Positions 23,941-29,437 of a stretch of 64,000 nucleotides of DNA are shown one piece after another; the first letter of the stretch is position 1, and each line of letters starts with the position of its first letter. Below the pieces are notes generated by a model. The model did no database searches. It was not told where the DNA came from and was given only the letters and a program-made list of their open reading frames with translations. Position numbers and translations under genes: made by a program. Source of the stretch: a virus (Duplodnaviria; Heunggongvirae; Uroviricota; Caudoviricetes); the IMG/VR virus record IMGVR_UViG_2851938318_000001. One strand, written 5' to 3'.

Positions 23941-24168
23941 ATGGTTATTTTCATCTCTGGCGTAAATATCAATAATCATACTCTTGTTTATGATATTGCT
24001 GGTTTAGCTGGATATGCTCTAAGTTCTGAAGTGGTTGATGAAACAACGTTTAAAATAAACATCAATGACGTAGAACATAGAGCGCGCGTAGGAATCAATG
24101 AAGCTGATGTTACTTTAATGCTTCAAGAATTTTTAAACGCTGGCTTTAATATTCACTTAGAAAAATAA
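23941..24168 (+). CDS. hypothetical small protein
   Basis: 75 aa ORF with RBS aaggag; followed by two hairpin terminators. Confidence 0.4.
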   Translation: MVIFISGVNINNHTLVYDIAGLAGYALSSEVVDETTFKININDVEHRARVGINEADVTLMLQEFLNAGFNIHLEK

Positions 24169-24176
24169 AAACAATA

Positions 24177-24201
24177 GCGCCCACTATGGGCGCTTTTTTT
24201 C
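24177..24201 (+). terminator. rho-independent terminator
   Basis: agcgcccactatgggcgct hairpin followed by T7 run. Confidence 0.7.
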
Positions 24202-24225
24202 GTTTCCAATACTCCCACCATAACG

Positions 24226-24250
24226 CGCCAATGATGGCGCGTTTTTTATT
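24226..24250 (+). terminator. rho-independent terminator
   Basis: cgcgccaatgatggcgcg hairpin followed by tttttt. Confidence 0.65.
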
Positions 24251-24619
24251 GTCTTTAACTCACTCCAACAACATAAAAATAAGCACCAAAATAACGCCAT
24301 AGACGCGCTTTTATATCCTTGCCAGTACATACCCATTACTTAACACATTAACGCGCTTAAAACGCGTTATAGCGCATAGTTAATCATTGGCTTTTAGTCT
24401 TGCTATGTAATCCGCGTTTAATTGTCGGCGCGGATCGGCATTTTGTGTTGTTCTGTATCCGCTCGCGTATTATGTGCGCGTGATTTTTCACATAATCACA
24501 CCACTTAATCACGTATGTGATTACGCTACGAAAGAAATCTGGATGTCTCAGGCGACGAAAGTCATCATAATTTTCCCCGCTCGCCTGTCCGACAACCGCT
24601 GGTTGGATTCCACCAGCTT

Positions 24620-24770
24620 CCCGATGTTTTTTCTACACAAAGGCGAATGCAGCCGTTTCCCGAAAAAATCCTGGCCGTTCCCCGTCGGCTCATGAATACG
24701 TTCCTCGCCGTTTCTGAAAATTTCCCTGCGGCAGCTGGTGGCTATAGAGAAAGGGCCGTTTCTGGCCCTC
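24620..24770. repeat. degenerate iteron-like array (CCGTTTCC / GCCGTTTCTG units)
   Basis: at least 4 units: cagccgtttcccgaaaa, ggccgttccccgtcgg, cgccgtttctgaaaa, ggccgtttctggcc. Confidence 0.55.
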
Positions 24771-24777
24771 TTCTCAG

Positions 24778-25260
24778 TTACACGCCATCAAGGATGTGGA
24801 TGCGGTTGCTTGCGTATACATTCAGCATAAAGTTAGCGCAAAACAGTTTCCATGTGTCAACGCCAGCGGTATACGTAATATTTTTGCATTTAATTGCATT
24901 GTTGGCGATCCGCATCCCCTGCGATACTGCTTCATCGTCGGAAAATTTGAACGACGATTGAGTTTTAATCCAGACAGAAATCTGCGTAGCGAACTCAATC
25001 AGCTTGGACTGGCAGAATCGCCCGGAGCGCACCGGAAAGACGAACGTTCCGAATCCAGAATTTACCACATACGCTTTCTCAAATACCCGCGAGTAACGAC
25101 GATTACCAATGATGTCACGTGCAATAATGCATTTTTCTTGTGCTGACAGTTCTACCGTCTCATTGTCGCGCCATGCACCAAGTACTCGTTTTTCAATGTC
25201 AGAGAACGTTACAGCGATATTGCCATGTGCGGGTGCGTTTACAGTAGCGATAAAATTCAT
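24778..25260 (-). CDS. hypothetical early protein
   Basis: 160 aa ORF preceded by conserved promoter/operator unit. Confidence 0.5.
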   Translation of the reverse strand: MNFIATVNAPAHGNIAVTFSDIEKRVLGAWRDNETVELSAQEKCIIARDIIGNRRYSRVFEKAYVVNSGFGTFVFPVRSGRFCQSKLIEFATQISVWIKTQSSFKFSDDEAVSQGMRIANNAIKCKNITYTAGVDTWKLFCANFMLNVYASNRIHILDGV

Positions 25261-25277
25261 GATTAATTCCTTATCGT

Positions 25278-25314
25278 AAATAACAAATTGTTTTCTTGTT
25301 GTTGTTAATTATCG
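25278..25314 (-). promoter_or_regulatory. conserved early promoter/operator unit
   Basis: plus-strand aaataacaaattgttttcttgttgttgttaattatcg (rc: CGATAAT...AAGAAAACAAtTTGTT). Confidence 0.55.
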
Positions 25315-25433
25315 CTGTACGAATAAGGCGTCAAAGTTGAAAACTACGGTAGCCGGACGGGAACAGGTGGGTTTGTCGGTTGCCTGGAGGTAAGAGGTTG
25401 GTGTTTTTAGCCTGCGGGAAACAAGATGGTCAT

Positions 25434-25460
25434 TTAAGGCCACCAGCATTGGTGGCCTTA
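25434..25460 (-). terminator. rho-independent terminator
   Basis: aaggccaccagcattggtggcctt. Confidence 0.55.
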
Positions 25461-25464
25461 TTCT

Positions 25465-25752
25465 TTAGTGGAGTAGAGCGATGTCGATGGTATCCCCTGA
25501 ATCATCCACACGGATCATCAGCATGGCGAAGGCGTTTAGTGGATAACTGGCGTGCCATTCAGGGAAGCGGTCATCTCGCATGAAGTCAGCAATGTCGTAA
25601 ACGCAGCCCTCAAAGTGGAAGAATCGCGTGCTTACCTGCTCGTCATAATCCACATGATCCATTTCTTGCTGTTCTGTTTCCGGCAAGTCCAGCCATGATT
25701 CGAGGAATACATTTTGTGCTTTGGTGGTAATGGTGAAATCAGTCATGAGCAT
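25465..25752 (-). CDS. hypothetical early protein
   Basis: 95 aa ORF with conserved promoter unit upstream and hairpin terminator downstream. Confidence 0.5.
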   Translation of the reverse strand: MLMTDFTITTKAQNVFLESWLDLPETEQQEMDHVDYDEQVSTRFFHFEGCVYDIADFMRDDRFPEWHASYPLNAFAMLMIRVDDSGDTIDIALLH

Positions 25753-25765
25753 ATCCTAACTGCGT

Positions 25766-25798
25766 AAACATGTTGTTTTCTTGTTGGTGTAATTATCG
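25766..25798 (-). promoter_or_regulatory. conserved early promoter/operator unit
   Basis: aaacatgttgttttcttgttggtgtaattatcg. Confidence 0.55.
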
Positions 25799-25905
25799 CA
25801 GTGTAGATAAGGCATAAAAGAAGTTAATACAGGCTGAATACGCAAGAAAGGTTCTGGAAGTTGATAGCTAGGTTTCAAACTAACCTTCGGTTATTAAAAG
25901 TCATT

Positions 25906-25935
25906 TAAGGCCACCAGCGTTAACTGGTGGCCTAT
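25906..25935 (-). terminator. rho-independent terminator
   Basis: aaggccaccagcgttaactggtggcct. Confidence 0.55.
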
Positions 25936-25938
25936 ATC

Positions 25939-26238
25939 TCATTGCTTTCGATGTGCTGCAACGAACTCTTTCAACGTTTCTAGCGCATGATAAAGACCGA
26001 CGATATTTGAGCCGTAGTCGATGCAAACAGGGGAAAGTGATGTCTTCCCGTCGTGCGATGAATATGCCGATGTGGTAGTTGCAGGGTAATCGTGGCGATA
26101 GCAAACCGCAGTTTTTGGGTGTCGCAGATACGCTATCCCTCTTTCAAGATCATAAATTGCGCGTCGCAGGTCATGCTCCTGCGCTCTGGTCAATTTTGCC
26201 ATCGTAATACTCTCACTTAATGCGGCAAAGCCAGCCAT
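25939..26238 (-). CDS. hypothetical early protein (true start probably near 26202)
   Basis: 99 aa ORF; its first codons lie inside a duplicated segment. Confidence 0.4.
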   Translation of the reverse strand: MAGFAALSESITMAKLTRAQEHDLRRAIYDLERGIAYLRHPKTAVCYRHDYPATTTSAYSSHDGKTSLSPVCIDYGSNIVGLYHALETLKEFVAAHRKQ

Positions 26239-26477
26239 GATTCGAGGAATACATTTTGTGCTTTTGGGGTAATGGTGAAATCAGTCATCGTGCCCCCCAT
26301 CTCCTGCAACTGTGCAACGGTGATATCTGGACACAGCCCGTCGATCCACACCCACACGTCAATGATGCTGTCACCGGCTTCAAAATGGTGAAATGCGCGC
26401 TCAAGCTGCTGATTGTTATCCACAGGCTCATTTGCTAGCTGCGCCCAGATTTGCTGGACTTGAGTAATAGTTTTCAT
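26217..26477 (-). CDS. hypothetical early protein with C-terminus derived from a duplicated segment
   Basis: C-terminal MTDFTITPKAQNVFLESWLALPH duplicates the N-terminus of the 25465..25752 product. Confidence 0.45.
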   Translation of the reverse strand: MKTITQVQQIWAQLANEPVDNNQQLERAFHHFEAGDSIIDVWVWIDGLCPDITVAQLQEMGGTMTDFTITPKAQNVFLESWLALPH

Positions 26478-26486
26478 CTGCTTTCC

Positions 26487-26513
26487 TCTTGTTTTCTTGT
26501 TGTTGTAATTATC
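26487..26513 (-). promoter_or_regulatory. conserved early promoter/operator unit (left palindrome arm degenerate)
   Basis: cttgttttcttgttgttgtaattatcg. Confidence 0.5.
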
Positions 26514-26556
26514 GAAGTTTAGATAAGGCAGAAAATAAATTGTTATCGGGCATAAG

Positions 26557-26583
26557 AAAATGGCGCGGTTTACGCGCCATTCA
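26557..26583 (-). terminator. rho-independent terminator
   Basis: aaaa-tggcgcggtttacgcgcca. Confidence 0.6.
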
Positions 26584-26590
26584 AAGAGGA

Positions 26591-26986
26591 TTAAGCGAAT
26601 ACGCTTTCAGGGATTAAGGTGTCGGCAGGAATGCCAGAGGTAATGCGCAGGCCGTACTGACCAATCCAGGTGGTGCTGGTGTTCAGGCTGGAGGTGAATA
26701 CGGAATTAACCATACTCATCATGGTTTCAAACACCTCTTCATCAACCTGGCGGAAGTAGTTCTCGATTTTCAGCAGCAGTGGGTCAGTTGCATCGAGAAT
26801 GGACTGGTATTGAGTCGCGTACTCGCCGCCGGAGGCATCACCTTTACGCACGATCGTACTGGCCTGGACTTCGGCACCAGTTTCGGTGTTGTACGTAACA
26901 ACGGTGATTTTTGCCACATTCTTACCTTCGGCAGTTTCAGAGGCATAGTAAACATCAACTGTCAGTTTTTCGCGTTTAACGGTCAT
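26591..26986 (-). CDS. hypothetical early protein
   Basis: 131 aa ORF; terminator hairpin 26557-26583 downstream. Confidence 0.5.
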   Translation of the reverse strand: MTVKREKLTVDVYYASETAEGKNVAKITVVTYNTETGAEVQASTIVRKGDASGGEYATQYQSILDATDPLLLKIENYFRQVDEEVFETMMSMVNSVFTSSLNTSTTWIGQYGLRITSGIPADTLIPESVFA

Positions 26987-27112
26987 TTCACTCTCCGTAG
27001 TGTATTGGTTATTTTTCTATTTTATAGTCGTAGGTATGTACTTACAATACAAAAAAGCCCCGTAAGGATGGCGGGGCTGTCGTACTGTCGACTAATTACC
27101 ACTTGCACATTA

Positions 27113-27454
27113 TCAGGCTATTGCCATCACTGATGCTCTCTGAATTTCTTGCTGGGCCACGCGGTTAACTTCCATCAAAGCCAGTTCGAGCTGATGTTCC
27201 GGCCACATTCTTTGAAATGCCACCCAGCCTTTTCCACGCTGGCGGCGAACATTCATTACATAACGAGTAAAGGTGTTTTTATCGAAAGACACCGCGGTTT
27301 CACGGAACAGACGAATAGAGGTTCCATTGGCAACGATGTCCAGCAAAGTTAATTGAGCAACCAGTGCAGGCTTCTCTTTTCTCTTCTGGTCTTTGTCCAG
27401 ACCAAGAACCAATGATTTTTTCATCACAACTCCGTAAACAACTTGTTTTCTCAA
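27113..27454 (-). CDS. hypothetical early protein (likely start 27424, MKKSLVLG...)
   Basis: ORF-track start lies inside the promoter unit; internal Met has RBS. Confidence 0.45.
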   Translation of the reverse strand: MRKQVVYGVVMKKSLVLGLDKDQKRKEKPALVAQLTLLDIVANGTSIRLFRETAVSFDKNTFTRYVMNVRRQRGKGWVAFQRMWPEHQLELALMEVNRVAQQEIQRASVMAIA

Positions 27455-27469
27455 TGGCGTAAATAATAC
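27435..27469 (-). promoter_or_regulatory. conserved early promoter/operator unit
   Basis: aaacaacttgttttctcaatggcgtaaataatacc. Confidence 0.5.
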
Positions 27470-27577
27470 CAGTAAGAAAACGGCTACAAAGCATATTGAT
27501 CAGGTGCATGAGCGATATGCAGGTTCTTCCCTGCGGCTACAGATTAAGTTAAGCCAGCAATGCTGGCTTAGATTGGT

Positions 27578-27928
27578 TTACGCGAATACCTCAAGAAACT
27601 CCTGAACGTCCCAATGCTGGACGAGGTGAAGATAGACCTTAGAAATCACGTCATTCTCGCTATCGCATGTGAAGTAGTACTTCTGGCTGCGGTTGTATGT
27701 GTCCACACAAAATTCGCTCATATCCATAAAGTCAGCATCTTCACCCAGGTCGCAAATCATCAAAGCAGGTGCGTCATCACGAGTCATCAGCTCAAGCACC
27801 CACCGCGAATTGATCAGAGTGGAAGACCAACCTTCTAACTCATAAAACTGATCAAACTCTTTTTGAGTTAATTTCTTGATTTGGTTGATGTCGATATGTG
27901 CAAACATAAAGCAATCCTTAAACAACAT
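27578..27928 (-). CDS. hypothetical early protein
   Basis: 116 aa acidic ORF directly downstream of promoter unit. Confidence 0.5.
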   Translation of the reverse strand: MLFKDCFMFAHIDINQIKKLTQKEFDQFYELEGWSSTLINSRWVLELMTRDDAPALMICDLGEDADFMDMSEFCVDTYNRSQKYYFTCDSENDVISKVYLHLVQHWDVQEFLEVFA

Positions 27929-27952
27929 GTTTTCTTGTTGGTGTTATTATCG
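27920..27952 (-). promoter_or_regulatory. conserved early promoter/operator unit
   Basis: aaacaacatgttttcttgttggtgttattatcg. Confidence 0.55.
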
Positions 27953-28279
27953 TAATAACGCACAGGCGAAAAAGGATTTTATTCCGGTGAATGTGGTTTT
28001 GGCAGTGAGTTTTCAGGTTCAGTACCGAGTACACTTTTTACATTATTCTGATTTAGTGGCCGAAGGTGGCTGGTGGACAGAATAATCCTCTCCCCGAAAA
28101 CCTACTGAAATCGATTGTGACCCGCTGACTGTCTGGCACAATTACGCTGTAGCTGGGCATTCAGAGGGAATCCAGCGGTAAGCAAGTCCGCCTGCACGTG
28201 AGCGCCTCTCTTCTTCCCGCACATTGCAGGTGGGTAGCCGCAACTCTCCCTCTCGCTATACCGGTACGCCGCCGTTCCT

Positions 28280-28410
28280 GAACCGGCATTGAGCCTTTTC
28301 CCGAAATCCACACAGGCAACTCGACCGTTTCCCTGAAAACCTCCAGCCGTTCCCAAAGGCAACCCAGCCGTTTCTGTAGCGGGATGCAGCCTTTCCCCTG
28401 TATGGACCGA
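28280..28410. repeat. degenerate iteron-like array (CCGTTTCC units), second copy
   Basis: about 6 units: cgccgttcctgaacc, agccttttcccgaaa, cgaccgtttccctgaaaa, cagccgttcccaaagg, cagccgtttctgtagc, cagcctttcccctgta. Confidence 0.55.
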
Positions 28411-28559
28411 AGGCTGACCGTAGGGGTGTTACGGGGGATAAAATCAGGAGTTGAATAAATACGAAAAAGGAGGCGACCCCCCTCCTTCCCTCCCCACTTA
28501 TACATACCTGGCTTCTTCGCTATACATGTTGTGTTTTCTTCGTGTTTTATCTGTCTCAA

Positions 28560-29280
28560 CCTCTCTATAGGCGTTAATGCTCACACCTTCCAGAACGTTC
28601 TATACGGCGACTAATTCTGTTGGTGAATTGGGTGTGTTGTTCTCTCTGTCGGTGTAAATGGTTTCGTTAGTTTTGCGGTGGTTCTTCTGTGGGATGTTCT
28701 CGTCGTTTTGGTGATTGTTCTTCTCCGTGTATGGAGTAAAGGCAGGTGGGCGATTCCTTTCGTTATTGTGTTTGAGTTGTTTGTCTGGAGTGTGTGAAGG
28801 GCTTTTGTAGTTATTCGTGTATTGGGTAATGGCGTTTCCCGTGATTGTTATGTTTCGTGTCTTTTGGGATTGAGAGAATCCTTGCGGTTACAGGCTTCGT
28901 TGGGGTTTCAGTGATTCTGGTGTTTCTTCGCTGTTTGGGTAATGGCGTGTCGTGGGTATCGCGCGTATGGAAGTTTCGAATTGCCTGTGAAAGTTAGGTT
29001 GGTTGTCCGGTAGCCTGCCATAAAGAGGTTGGTTGTTTTTGGAATGGCATATGTGTTATTTGGTTGTTTTGTTATACCTGAAAATAAGTTGTTTATATGG
29101 TTGTGTAACGCAACGGGAGCGATTTTGAGCGTGTGTTTTTGTTGGTAGTGTGTTTGGTCGTCTGTGGTGAAAATTGGACGCTGTGGCGCTGTCTGCTGCG
29201 TAGAATTACGGGTATAAGCAGTGATGTGTGAAAACGTCAATTTTTTAGACCAAATCGGGTGAAAGCGTTGATGTTTCGTT
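28560..29280. other. ORF-free region with extreme GT (plus) / CA (minus) strand skew
   Basis: about 0.7 kb almost devoid of C and A on the plus strand; only low-complexity ORFs; promoter unit at 29290-29326 points into it. Confidence 0.5.
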
Positions 29281-29289
29281 GATCTGTTA

Positions 29290-29326
29290 TTCAGTTGTTT
29301 TCTTATTGGTATAAACAACTATAACC
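29290..29326 (-). promoter_or_regulatory. conserved early promoter/operator unit (drives GT-skew region)
   Basis: ttcagttgttttcttattggtataaacaactataacc. Confidence 0.45.
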
Positions 29327-29437
29327 TATTGATATTTAAGGATGTGATTGCAGGTATAGAATGGGGGTAGTGGCGATCAACGGATTCTTATAGAAAAGAA
29401 TCAAATTGTGACCGCCATTATCAATGAGTTGCAACCG

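Follow-up and report, generated by a model that had tools for sequence, protein, structure and literature searches.

A gene remnant, probably left by an in-frame internal deletion, at a site of cassette exchange in an SSU5-type phage-plasmid of Escherichia coli

A 64,000-nucleotide (nt) stretch of viral DNA (IMG/VR record IMGVR_UViG_2851938318_000001, Caudoviricetes), called the window below, carries two direct copies of a 66-nt sequence within a cluster of small minus-strand genes. One copy is the 5' end of an intact gene, here called C, and the other lies in a 23-codon stub of the same gene, deltaC, which stands between two unrelated genes, A' and B. The stub would have arisen when the C gene of an ancestral C-B operon lost its interior, after which the cassettes would have been exchanged between plasmids, a crossover in a stem-loop would have placed them in tandem, and a slip in a run of G would have fused A' to the stub. 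Taken as a whole, this course of events is considered very probable from the comparison of related loci. The repeat and the genes concerned are as follows.

25681..25746, minus strand: repeat copy 1, codons 1-22 of intact gene C; the phrog_1845 profile begins at its ATG.
26223..26288, minus strand: repeat copy 2, which lies inside deltaC.
25465..25746, minus strand: gene C, 93 amino acids (aa) from ATG 25746, with a further upstream in-frame ATG at 25752; family phrog_1845.
26217..26288, minus strand: deltaC, a 23-codon stub (MTDFTITPKAQNVFLESWLALPH, then stop) made up of C codons 1-22, the last codon of C (H) and the C stop.
25939..26202, minus strand: gene B, 87 aa from ATG 26202, with the Shine-Dalgarno sequence GAGAG.
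26289..26477, minus strand: gene A', family phrog_24588, which reads through into deltaC to give an 86-aa open reading frame (ORF) at 26217..26477 (WP_249942482).
26293..26298, minus strand: G6 homopolymer (C6 on the plus strand), 4 nt upstream of the deltaC ATG, which sets A' in frame with deltaC.
25747..26288, minus strand: 542-bp unit between the two repeat copies, holding the promoter-like unit of C (P_C), a spacer, stem-loop SL2, B and deltaC; it is exactly what plasmid NZ_CP027369.1 lacks.

A repeat search of the window returned a strong two-copy direct repeat at 25681-25746 and 26223-26288 (94% identical, start-to-start spacing 542 nt). When copy 1 was compared with the 64-kb window using BLAST, copy 2 aligned at 62/66 positions without gaps (E=5e-25), and the next-best match had E=0.03. 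The 30 nt flanking each side of the two copies are identical at 7/30 positions, which is the random level, so the boundaries of the repeat are sharp. On the minus (coding) strand, its 5' end is exactly the ATG of MTDFTIT... and its 3' end is ...TTGCCG. The repeat is far above chance. The original prediction, made from the letters of the window, had placed it near 25681-25752 and 26221-26290; that observation is borne out, with a true extent of 66 nt instead of about 70. The "extra T" described there is not an indel, since TTTGGTGG and TTTTGGGG align without gaps and are set apart by two substitutions.

The three genes belong to unrelated families (C to phrog_1845, A' to phrog_24588, and B without a PHROG), so the earlier description of the cassettes as "paralogous units" does not hold. 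Residues 3-95 of the window C ORF match phrog_1845 positions 1-93/93 (E=5e-57), making C a full-length member, and its native start is MTDF, where the profile begins. Residues 1-21 of C are highly conserved across the family. The stub covers only codons 1-22 plus the last codon and is a remnant, not a member of phrog_1845. Residues 9-57 of A' match phrog_24588 positions 6-54/55 (E=2e-10), a profile of stand-alone small proteins. None of A', B and C had any match in Pfam, NCBIfam, PADLOC or PDB.

The window comes from an SSU5-supergroup (SSU5-type) phage-plasmid of E. coli, because homologs of the neighbouring 160-aa gene (g160) are confined to SSU5-type elements (Salmonella phage SSU5 at 70% aa identity) and SSU5 keeps the gene order g131-C-g160; membership was judged on the gene content of this locus. 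Phage-plasmids of this supergroup share synteny and gene content with the SSU5, pHCM2 and pKpn types and are extrachromosomal replicons of ~100-120 kb (Pfeifer et al. 2021, PMC7969092). Positions 24700-27100 are 100% identical to plasmid pRM9131-1 of E. coli RM9131 (NZ_CP028430.1, 117 kb), the nearest phage records are Escherichia phages Cyrano, PhiR41_1 and CMS-2020a (all ~108 kb), and the matching records are plasmids or phages of 106-117 kb. The variable island of small minus-strand cassettes, each with a conserved promoter-like/leader unit and a GC-rich stem-loop, sits between the conserved 131-aa gene (g131) and the conserved 160-aa gene. Along transcription, from high to low coordinates, the order is P_A (the promoter-like unit of A'), A', the G6 run, deltaC, a spacer, B, SL2, P_C, C, SL1, and a promoter unit with the 160-aa gene.

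Module content was mapped across more than 30 related loci. Labels of relatives used below include Cyrano (L001), NZ_CP027369.1 (L004), pU_B2_3 (L005), pM-64-197 (L007), Klebsiella plasmids (L008-L010), Logan SRR13776336 (L015), CP025888.1 (L017), an E. albertii plasmid (L018), pEP91B-1 (L019), SRR6212928 (L020), GCA_019567675.1 (L022), SRR27904687 (L024) and plasmid pCP102 of Enterobacter sp. CP102 (L037). Among 5,426 complete E. coli genomes, the deltaC-B junction was found in 5, the junction of A' with the 66 nt in 5 and that of P_C with the 66 nt in 104, all of the matches being plasmid-borne; both repeat copies occur together only in RM9131. In the wider protein collection, ~9-12 further contigs carry the arrangement of the window.

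The origin of the stub is indicated by the Klebsiella plasmids, in which a promoter unit is followed by an intact C (93 aa), a 10-nt spacer with GGAG, B (88 aa), a stem-loop and the 160-aa gene. Using pairwise global alignment, the E. coli stub was compared with the Klebsiella C-B segment. The stub ends in ...TGG CTG GCT TTG CCG CAT TAA, then GTGAGAGTATTACG and ATGGCAAAA, and the Klebsiella C ends in ...GGT CTG CTG CAC TAA, then GGAGAAGTAA and ATGGCAAAG. The two 3' ends (GCTTTGCCGCATTAAG and GGTCTGCTGCACTAAG) are identical at 12/16 positions, and the spacer and the start of B are clearly homologous. In the window the deltaC stop lies 14 nt ahead of the B ATG, and the Shine-Dalgarno sequence GAGAG is in that spacer. 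The junction TTGCCG/CATTAA is identical in all of the 30+ stub copies collected. The allele in CP025888.1 retains Asp20 as GAT, from which one step each leads to GCT (Ala) and AAT (Asn) in the other alleles.

Because the last codon of C, the stop and the spacer ahead of B survive at its 3' end in the arrangement of the intact Klebsiella operon, deltaC is best read as an internally deleted C, produced by one in-frame 70-codon (210 nt) deletion within a C-B operon and not by local duplication. An ancestral C-B bicistron would have lost C codons 23-92 between two imperfectly similar short sequences, TTGCCG on the 5' side and CTGCTG on the 3' side, and the C start, last codon, stop, spacer and B would all have been kept. 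An illegitimate insertion putting B in place of the C body was also considered and dropped, since Klebsiella has an intact C-B operon and the stub still carries the stop and spacer. In Enterobacter pCP102 (positions 1801-2815) the operon is A'-C-X-Y, X being 78 aa and Y 100 aa, and the downstream partners of C therefore vary by host (B, X-Y or none). A different chimera was seen at this locus in L015 (equivalent to window 25465-26477), where a 98-aa protein runs in frame from A' residues 1-61 into the final 37 residues of C (...LQQVGR/DDRFPEWH...); it apparently arose by deletion between GATGAC repeats.

The sequences that bound the cassettes are listed below.

25747..25835, minus strand: P_C, promoter-like/5'-leader unit ahead of C (TGCGATAAT, with GATAAT at 25792-25797; leader CAACAAGAAAACA; Shine-Dalgarno sequence AGGA).
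26478..26545, minus strand: P_A, promoter-like/leader unit ahead of A', with GATAAT at 26508-26513.
25435..25460, minus strand: SL1, stem-loop after gene C (-19.2 kcal/mol, z=-4.65).
25908..25933, minus strand: SL2, stem-loop after gene B, with an 11-bp GC-rich stem (-20.9 kcal/mol, z=-4.95).

Between 25.26 and 27.98 kb, at least five small genes on the minus strand are preceded by promoter-like units (...TGCGATAATTACACCAACAAGAAAACA...Shine-Dalgarno...ATG), and three strict copies of the unit motif were found against 0 expected by chance. The conserved unit is ~55-70 nt long (...GCCTTATCTAnACTGCGATAATTACAnCAACAAGAAAACAA...Shine-Dalgarno...ATG) and is seen at 25261-25340, 25747-25835, 26478-26545, 27425-27510 and 27908-27990. 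Its A-rich leader AACAAGAAAACAA resembles an (ARN)n tract, the kind of tract bound by Hfq, and could be a common regulatory or translation-enhancing site. SL1 and SL2 are near-identical 11-bp GC-rich hairpins (AAGGCCACCAG...CTGGTGGCCTT), and the stem-loops lie ~110 nt upstream of the next GATAAT (that of P_C for SL2).

Across the related loci the 66-nt sequence is found in all four combinations of left and right neighbours.

A' on the left, body of C on the right: NZ_CP027369.1 (L004).
A' on the left, B on the right: pM-64-197 (L007), pEP91B-1 (L019), CP025888.1 (L017), L027, L030 and the window.
P_C on the left, body of C on the right: Cyrano (L001), the E. albertii plasmid (L018) and the window.
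P_C on the left, B on the right: pU_B2_3 (L005).

These neighbours are complex and unique, and by four-gamete logic at least one exchange must therefore have taken place within the 66 nt or at their edges. All A'-linked stubs have CCA at repeat nt 22-24, and the pU_B2_3 copy is chimeric, with the CCT variant typical of P_C-linked C alleles at these positions joined to the deltaC 3' end. Plasmid NZ_CP027369.1 equals the window minus exactly 542 bp (one repeat copy and the interval) and shares the G6 run; it matches window positions 24700-25746 and 26223-27100, and both matches share the single 66-nt copy. Its single-nucleotide polymorphisms (SNPs) show no direct match to RM9131.

The window is homologous to Cyrano (...g47, stem-loop, P_C, C, stem-loop, g160) between positions 24700 and 25933 and to pM-64-197 (g131, P_A, A', deltaC, B, stem-loop, g160) between positions 27100 and 25900, so that the two blocks overlap solely in 34 nt around SL2. 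The blocks shared with Cyrano, PhiR41_1, pM-64-197 and pU_B2_3 end at stem-loops, promoter units or the 66-nt patch. Homology with relatives thus breaks exactly at the ends of the 66 nt and at the stem-loops, which agrees with the recombination scar and cassette shuffling proposed from the window. The deltaC-B pair would have spread by homologous exchange, with the 66 nt as the homology patch on one side and the shared promoter and stem-loop units on the other. The layout of the window (A'-deltaC-B-stem-loop followed by P_C-C-stem-loop) would then have resulted from a single unequal crossover within the 34-nt stem-loop region, the partners being an A'-deltaC-B plasmid and one with a P_C-C cassette. 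The two repeat copies are now direct repeats that could delete the intervening 542 bp.

As the original prediction stated, the 86-aa product of 26217..26477 ends in MTDFTITPKAQNVFLESWLALPH, matching the N-terminus of the 25465..25752 product; its cause is the G6 homopolymer and not an inserted T. The E. coli sequence ahead of the ATG is GAGATG(G)nCACG. Alleles were counted by exact-sequence cluster look-up, since 90% clusters merge A' and C through the fusions.

n=4: A' product of 64 aa, ending ...MGHDD and stop; 87 contigs.
n=5: A' product of 63 aa, ending ...MGAR and stop, with an ATGA overlap; 85 contigs.
GGGGAGG variant: A' product of 65 aa; 304 contigs.
n=6, A'::deltaC (the window allele): 86-aa in-frame fusion; 9 contigs.
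n=6, A'::C: 156-aa in-frame fusion; 1 contig (NZ_CP027369.1).

In relatives, stand-alone A' forms of 61-65 aa dominate, with the A' stop overlapping the C start; the G4 and GGGGAGG alleles overlap C/deltaC by 8 nt. Enterobacter pCP102 keeps an A' of 61 aa as an ORF apart from its intact C, the stop of A' overlapping the start of C as TGATG, and therefore the A'/C adjacency is old and separate ORFs are ancestral. The 86-aa ORF is a rare derived allele made by one extra G: as the alleles show, a +1 change in the G-run (G6 in place of G5 or G4) fuses A' to deltaC. In natural plasmids (L007, L017, L016 and L004) the G-run alleles place the A' C-terminus in all three frames, giving 63, 64, 65, 86 and 156 aa. 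The run is a mutational hot spot and could act as a slippage switch. Distant homologs of A' (35-41% identity) were seen on conjugative plasmids of Legionella and Halomonas, so A' is not phage-plasmid-specific.

Homologs of B (62-77% identity) occur in Klebsiella and other SSU5-type plasmids and are always a downstream cistron. Gene callers (PGAP, WP_128111727; Logan) start B at ATG 26238, inside the repeat, giving a 99-aa form whose 12 N-terminal residues come from the repeat in its +1 frame; this ATG is without a Shine-Dalgarno sequence, and the start at ATG 26202 agrees with that of all B homologs (MAKLT...). In the commonest relatives (L016, L025, L026, L028, L029, L031, L033 and L034), B has lost 173 nt, with a shift of frame, between 9-nt TTGAAAGAG direct repeats, and L031 has a nonsense codon in deltaC in addition. 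In much of the population the operon is decaying.

Several points weigh against the reading given above. An intact A'-C-B or C-B operon was not found in E. coli itself, and the ancestor is therefore reconstructed from Klebsiella (B at 77% aa identity) and Enterobacter. The endpoint of the deletion is ambiguous within ~9 nt, the N- and C-terminal sequences being alike there. The evidence for crossovers inside the 66 nt consists of haplotype combinations and one or two SNPs, NZ_CP027369.1 could be either a deletion product of a window-type plasmid or ancestor-like, and the events may have followed another order. The putative promoter units have GATAAT with weak -35 candidates, and a consensus scan made no call. 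A shared promoter and terminator architecture had also been proposed; a shared promoter-like unit and stem-loop do bound the cassettes, the stem-loop being at most a putative terminator, as on the coding strand SL1 and SL2 are followed by AAATGAC and no U-tract. Instead of classic intrinsic terminators, these hairpins may be elements that stabilise RNA or act in both directions. Finally, the stub ORF is intact in 30/31 copies, which leaves some room for selection.

That last point belongs to the explanation that the 23-codon ORF is a selected module, either a micropeptide or a leader through which B translation is coupled to ribosomes arriving from upstream. The deletion preserves the frame exactly, with both start and stop kept, the stop adjoins the B Shine-Dalgarno sequence 14 nt from the B ATG, the 21 N-terminal residues retained are the best-conserved part of family C, and B homologs elsewhere always follow another cistron with a 10-nt gap or a 1-nt overlap. 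However, the stub is unchanged in the commonest relatives, where the 173-nt deletion destroys B, so its retention needs no selection for B expression. Residue 20 is always Asp in intact C; variation there (D/A/N) is confined to the stub, one copy of which carries a nonsense codon. The copies are all very recent (>90% nt identity), and an intact ORF is expected by default. The stub RNA shows no excess of structure over shuffled sequence (z=+0.9 and +1.3) and has zero Rfam matches. A selected module is therefore regarded as unlikely. The 66 nt had separately been considered as a functional RNA, and this was rejected, there being no Rfam match in 24000-29000 and a fold energy no better than that of shuffled sequence. 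Most likely the stub is without function of its own; at most, and speculatively, it keeps ribosomes moving to within 14 nt of the B start codon.

The nearest analogue of the locus is the PeSL system of T4-type phages, in which repeated promoter and stem-loop motifs flank ORFans in hyperplastic regions, recombination between the motifs shuffles cassettes and can release mini-circles, and the promoter, terminator and mini-circle activities have been shown experimentally (PMC2839356; Comeau et al. 2014, PMC4122927). As in PeSL, small ORFan genes in a hyperplastic region are bracketed here by a repeated promoter-like motif and a stable stem-loop: at least five small ORFans each have a promoter-like unit immediately ahead of them, and there are two near-identical stem-loops. 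Differences between close relatives have their endpoints in repeated motifs, and a small circle could in principle be cut out between the nearby direct repeats. The locus is nevertheless not a member of the PeSL family. Its host element is an SSU5-type siphovirus-like phage-plasmid and not a T4-type myovirus, its motif sequences are unrelated to those of PeSL, and its promoter and terminator activities are putative. One crossover site is an intragenic stub instead of a regulatory motif, and the stem-loop lies ~110 nt upstream of the -10-like element, whereas the PeSL stem-loop is inside or overlaps the promoter (PMC2839356).

A stronger form of the cassette-exchange explanation is that SSU5-type phage-plasmids have a PeSL-like system in which the 66-nt copies are actively recombining in pRM9131-type plasmids and the G4/G5/G6 tract is a slippage switch. 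This is judged improbable. If true, the products of recombination would be a 542-bp circle, P_C-(C/deltaC hybrid)-B-stem-loop, which is exactly the pU_B2_3 cassette, and an A'::C fusion plasmid, which is exactly the NZ_CP027369.1 layout and also G6, and the G-tract would switch A' from a separate coupled ORF to a fusion protein and back.

A local partial duplication, in which the C 5' end was copied in this plasmid and landed between A' and B, was the original prediction and is now very unlikely. The two direct copies lie 542 bp apart on one molecule, and copy 2 of the window shares a CCTC variant with copy 1, where other tandem-type plasmids have CCTT, which could hint at local copying or gene conversion. 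Against this, deltaC-B occurs without a C cassette in L005, L007, L017, L019, L027, L030 and L032, a single junction is common to all stub copies, each junction of the window occurs separately in other plasmids, and a local copy does not agree with the C terminal codon, stop and spacer retained as in the Klebsiella operon. An artefact of assembly or sequencing, be it a repeat collapsed or made chimeric or a fusion due to homopolymer error, has a next to negligible probability: homopolymer length errors are common in long-read assemblies and the G-run is one base off from most relatives, but the exact 86-aa protein and the tandem gene order recur on 9-12 contigs from independent samples, among them short-read Logan/NCBI assemblies (L020, L022 and L024) that differ from the window elsewhere.

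The reading of deltaC as a deletion remnant that entered cassette exchange was also set beside other known patterns. Conserved boundary or linker sequences reportedly occur at module junctions of lambdoid phages such as HK620, and a model ascribed to Hendrix and co-workers is said to explain phage mosaicism by illegitimate plus homologous recombination. The locus resembles both, in that short shared sequences at gene boundaries would be homologous exchange points between unrelated modules, and rare illegitimate events (here a deletion) would make new junctions that then spread. It differs in that the patch is the retained 5' end of a deleted gene, with an explicit origin, and in its scale of one or two tiny genes and not functional modules. 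Short-homology (slippage-type) deletions leave in-frame gene remnants in bacteria and phages, and short direct similarity is seen at the endpoints of both the deltaC deletion (TTGCCG/CTGCTG) and the 173-nt deletion in B (the 9-nt TTGAAAGAG); the one unusual feature here is that the remnant would have become a recombination substrate and fused to the upstream gene. Translationally coupled genes overlap as ATGA or TGATG stop-starts, and A' and C/deltaC overlap by ATGA (G5), TGATG (Enterobacter pCP102) or 8 nt (G4, GGGGAGG), but the G6 allele of the window removes the overlap and yields a fusion ORF; coupling here is a prediction. A limited literature search, which does not prove absence, found no specific earlier description of these cassettes in SSU5-type elements.

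RefSeq names C an "ABC transporter" (WP_086118731), and this label is spread through RefSeq/GenBank for phrog_1845 in E. coli, Salmonella, Klebsiella, Enterobacter and Cronobacter. No ABC ATPase or permease domain was found in C using Pfam and NCBIfam, PDB likewise gave no support, and the name is probably a legacy annotation error.

Some features of the surrounding sequence were also recorded. The 131-aa gene (26591-26986, phrog_2473) has two allele classes in close relatives, with ~96-100% and ~85% nt identity to the window (58 mismatches for the latter class, in L002, L003, L027 and L030), and therefore mosaic exchange reaches beyond the cassette studied. Positions 28100-29400 have no convincing ORF and contain degenerate short direct repeats (a 28-nt unit three times, at 28721, 28811 and 28924, and a 24-nt unit twice, at 28983 and 29013), which could be protein-binding sites, iterons or a regulatory region. 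At 24162-24250, weak sub-threshold Rfam matches to small RNAs (MicX, Hrs1 and STnc350; E=1e-4 to 0.9) coincide with hairpins between convergent genes, which are most likely bidirectional terminators rather than small RNA genes.

The locus reveals neither a new mechanism nor a gene function; internal deletion, homologous exchanges and a homopolymer slip are ordinary for accessory regions of mobile elements and are unusually well resolved here. For annotation, the 86-aa WP_249942482 is a chimeric protein, the 99-aa version of B has its start within the scar, and "ABC transporter" for phrog_1845 is baseless. For phage-plasmids, the locus is a compact, traceable example of accessory-gene turnover, in which a gene stub, together with repeated promoter and stem-loop units, would serve as a homology patch that lets unrelated small genes recombine.

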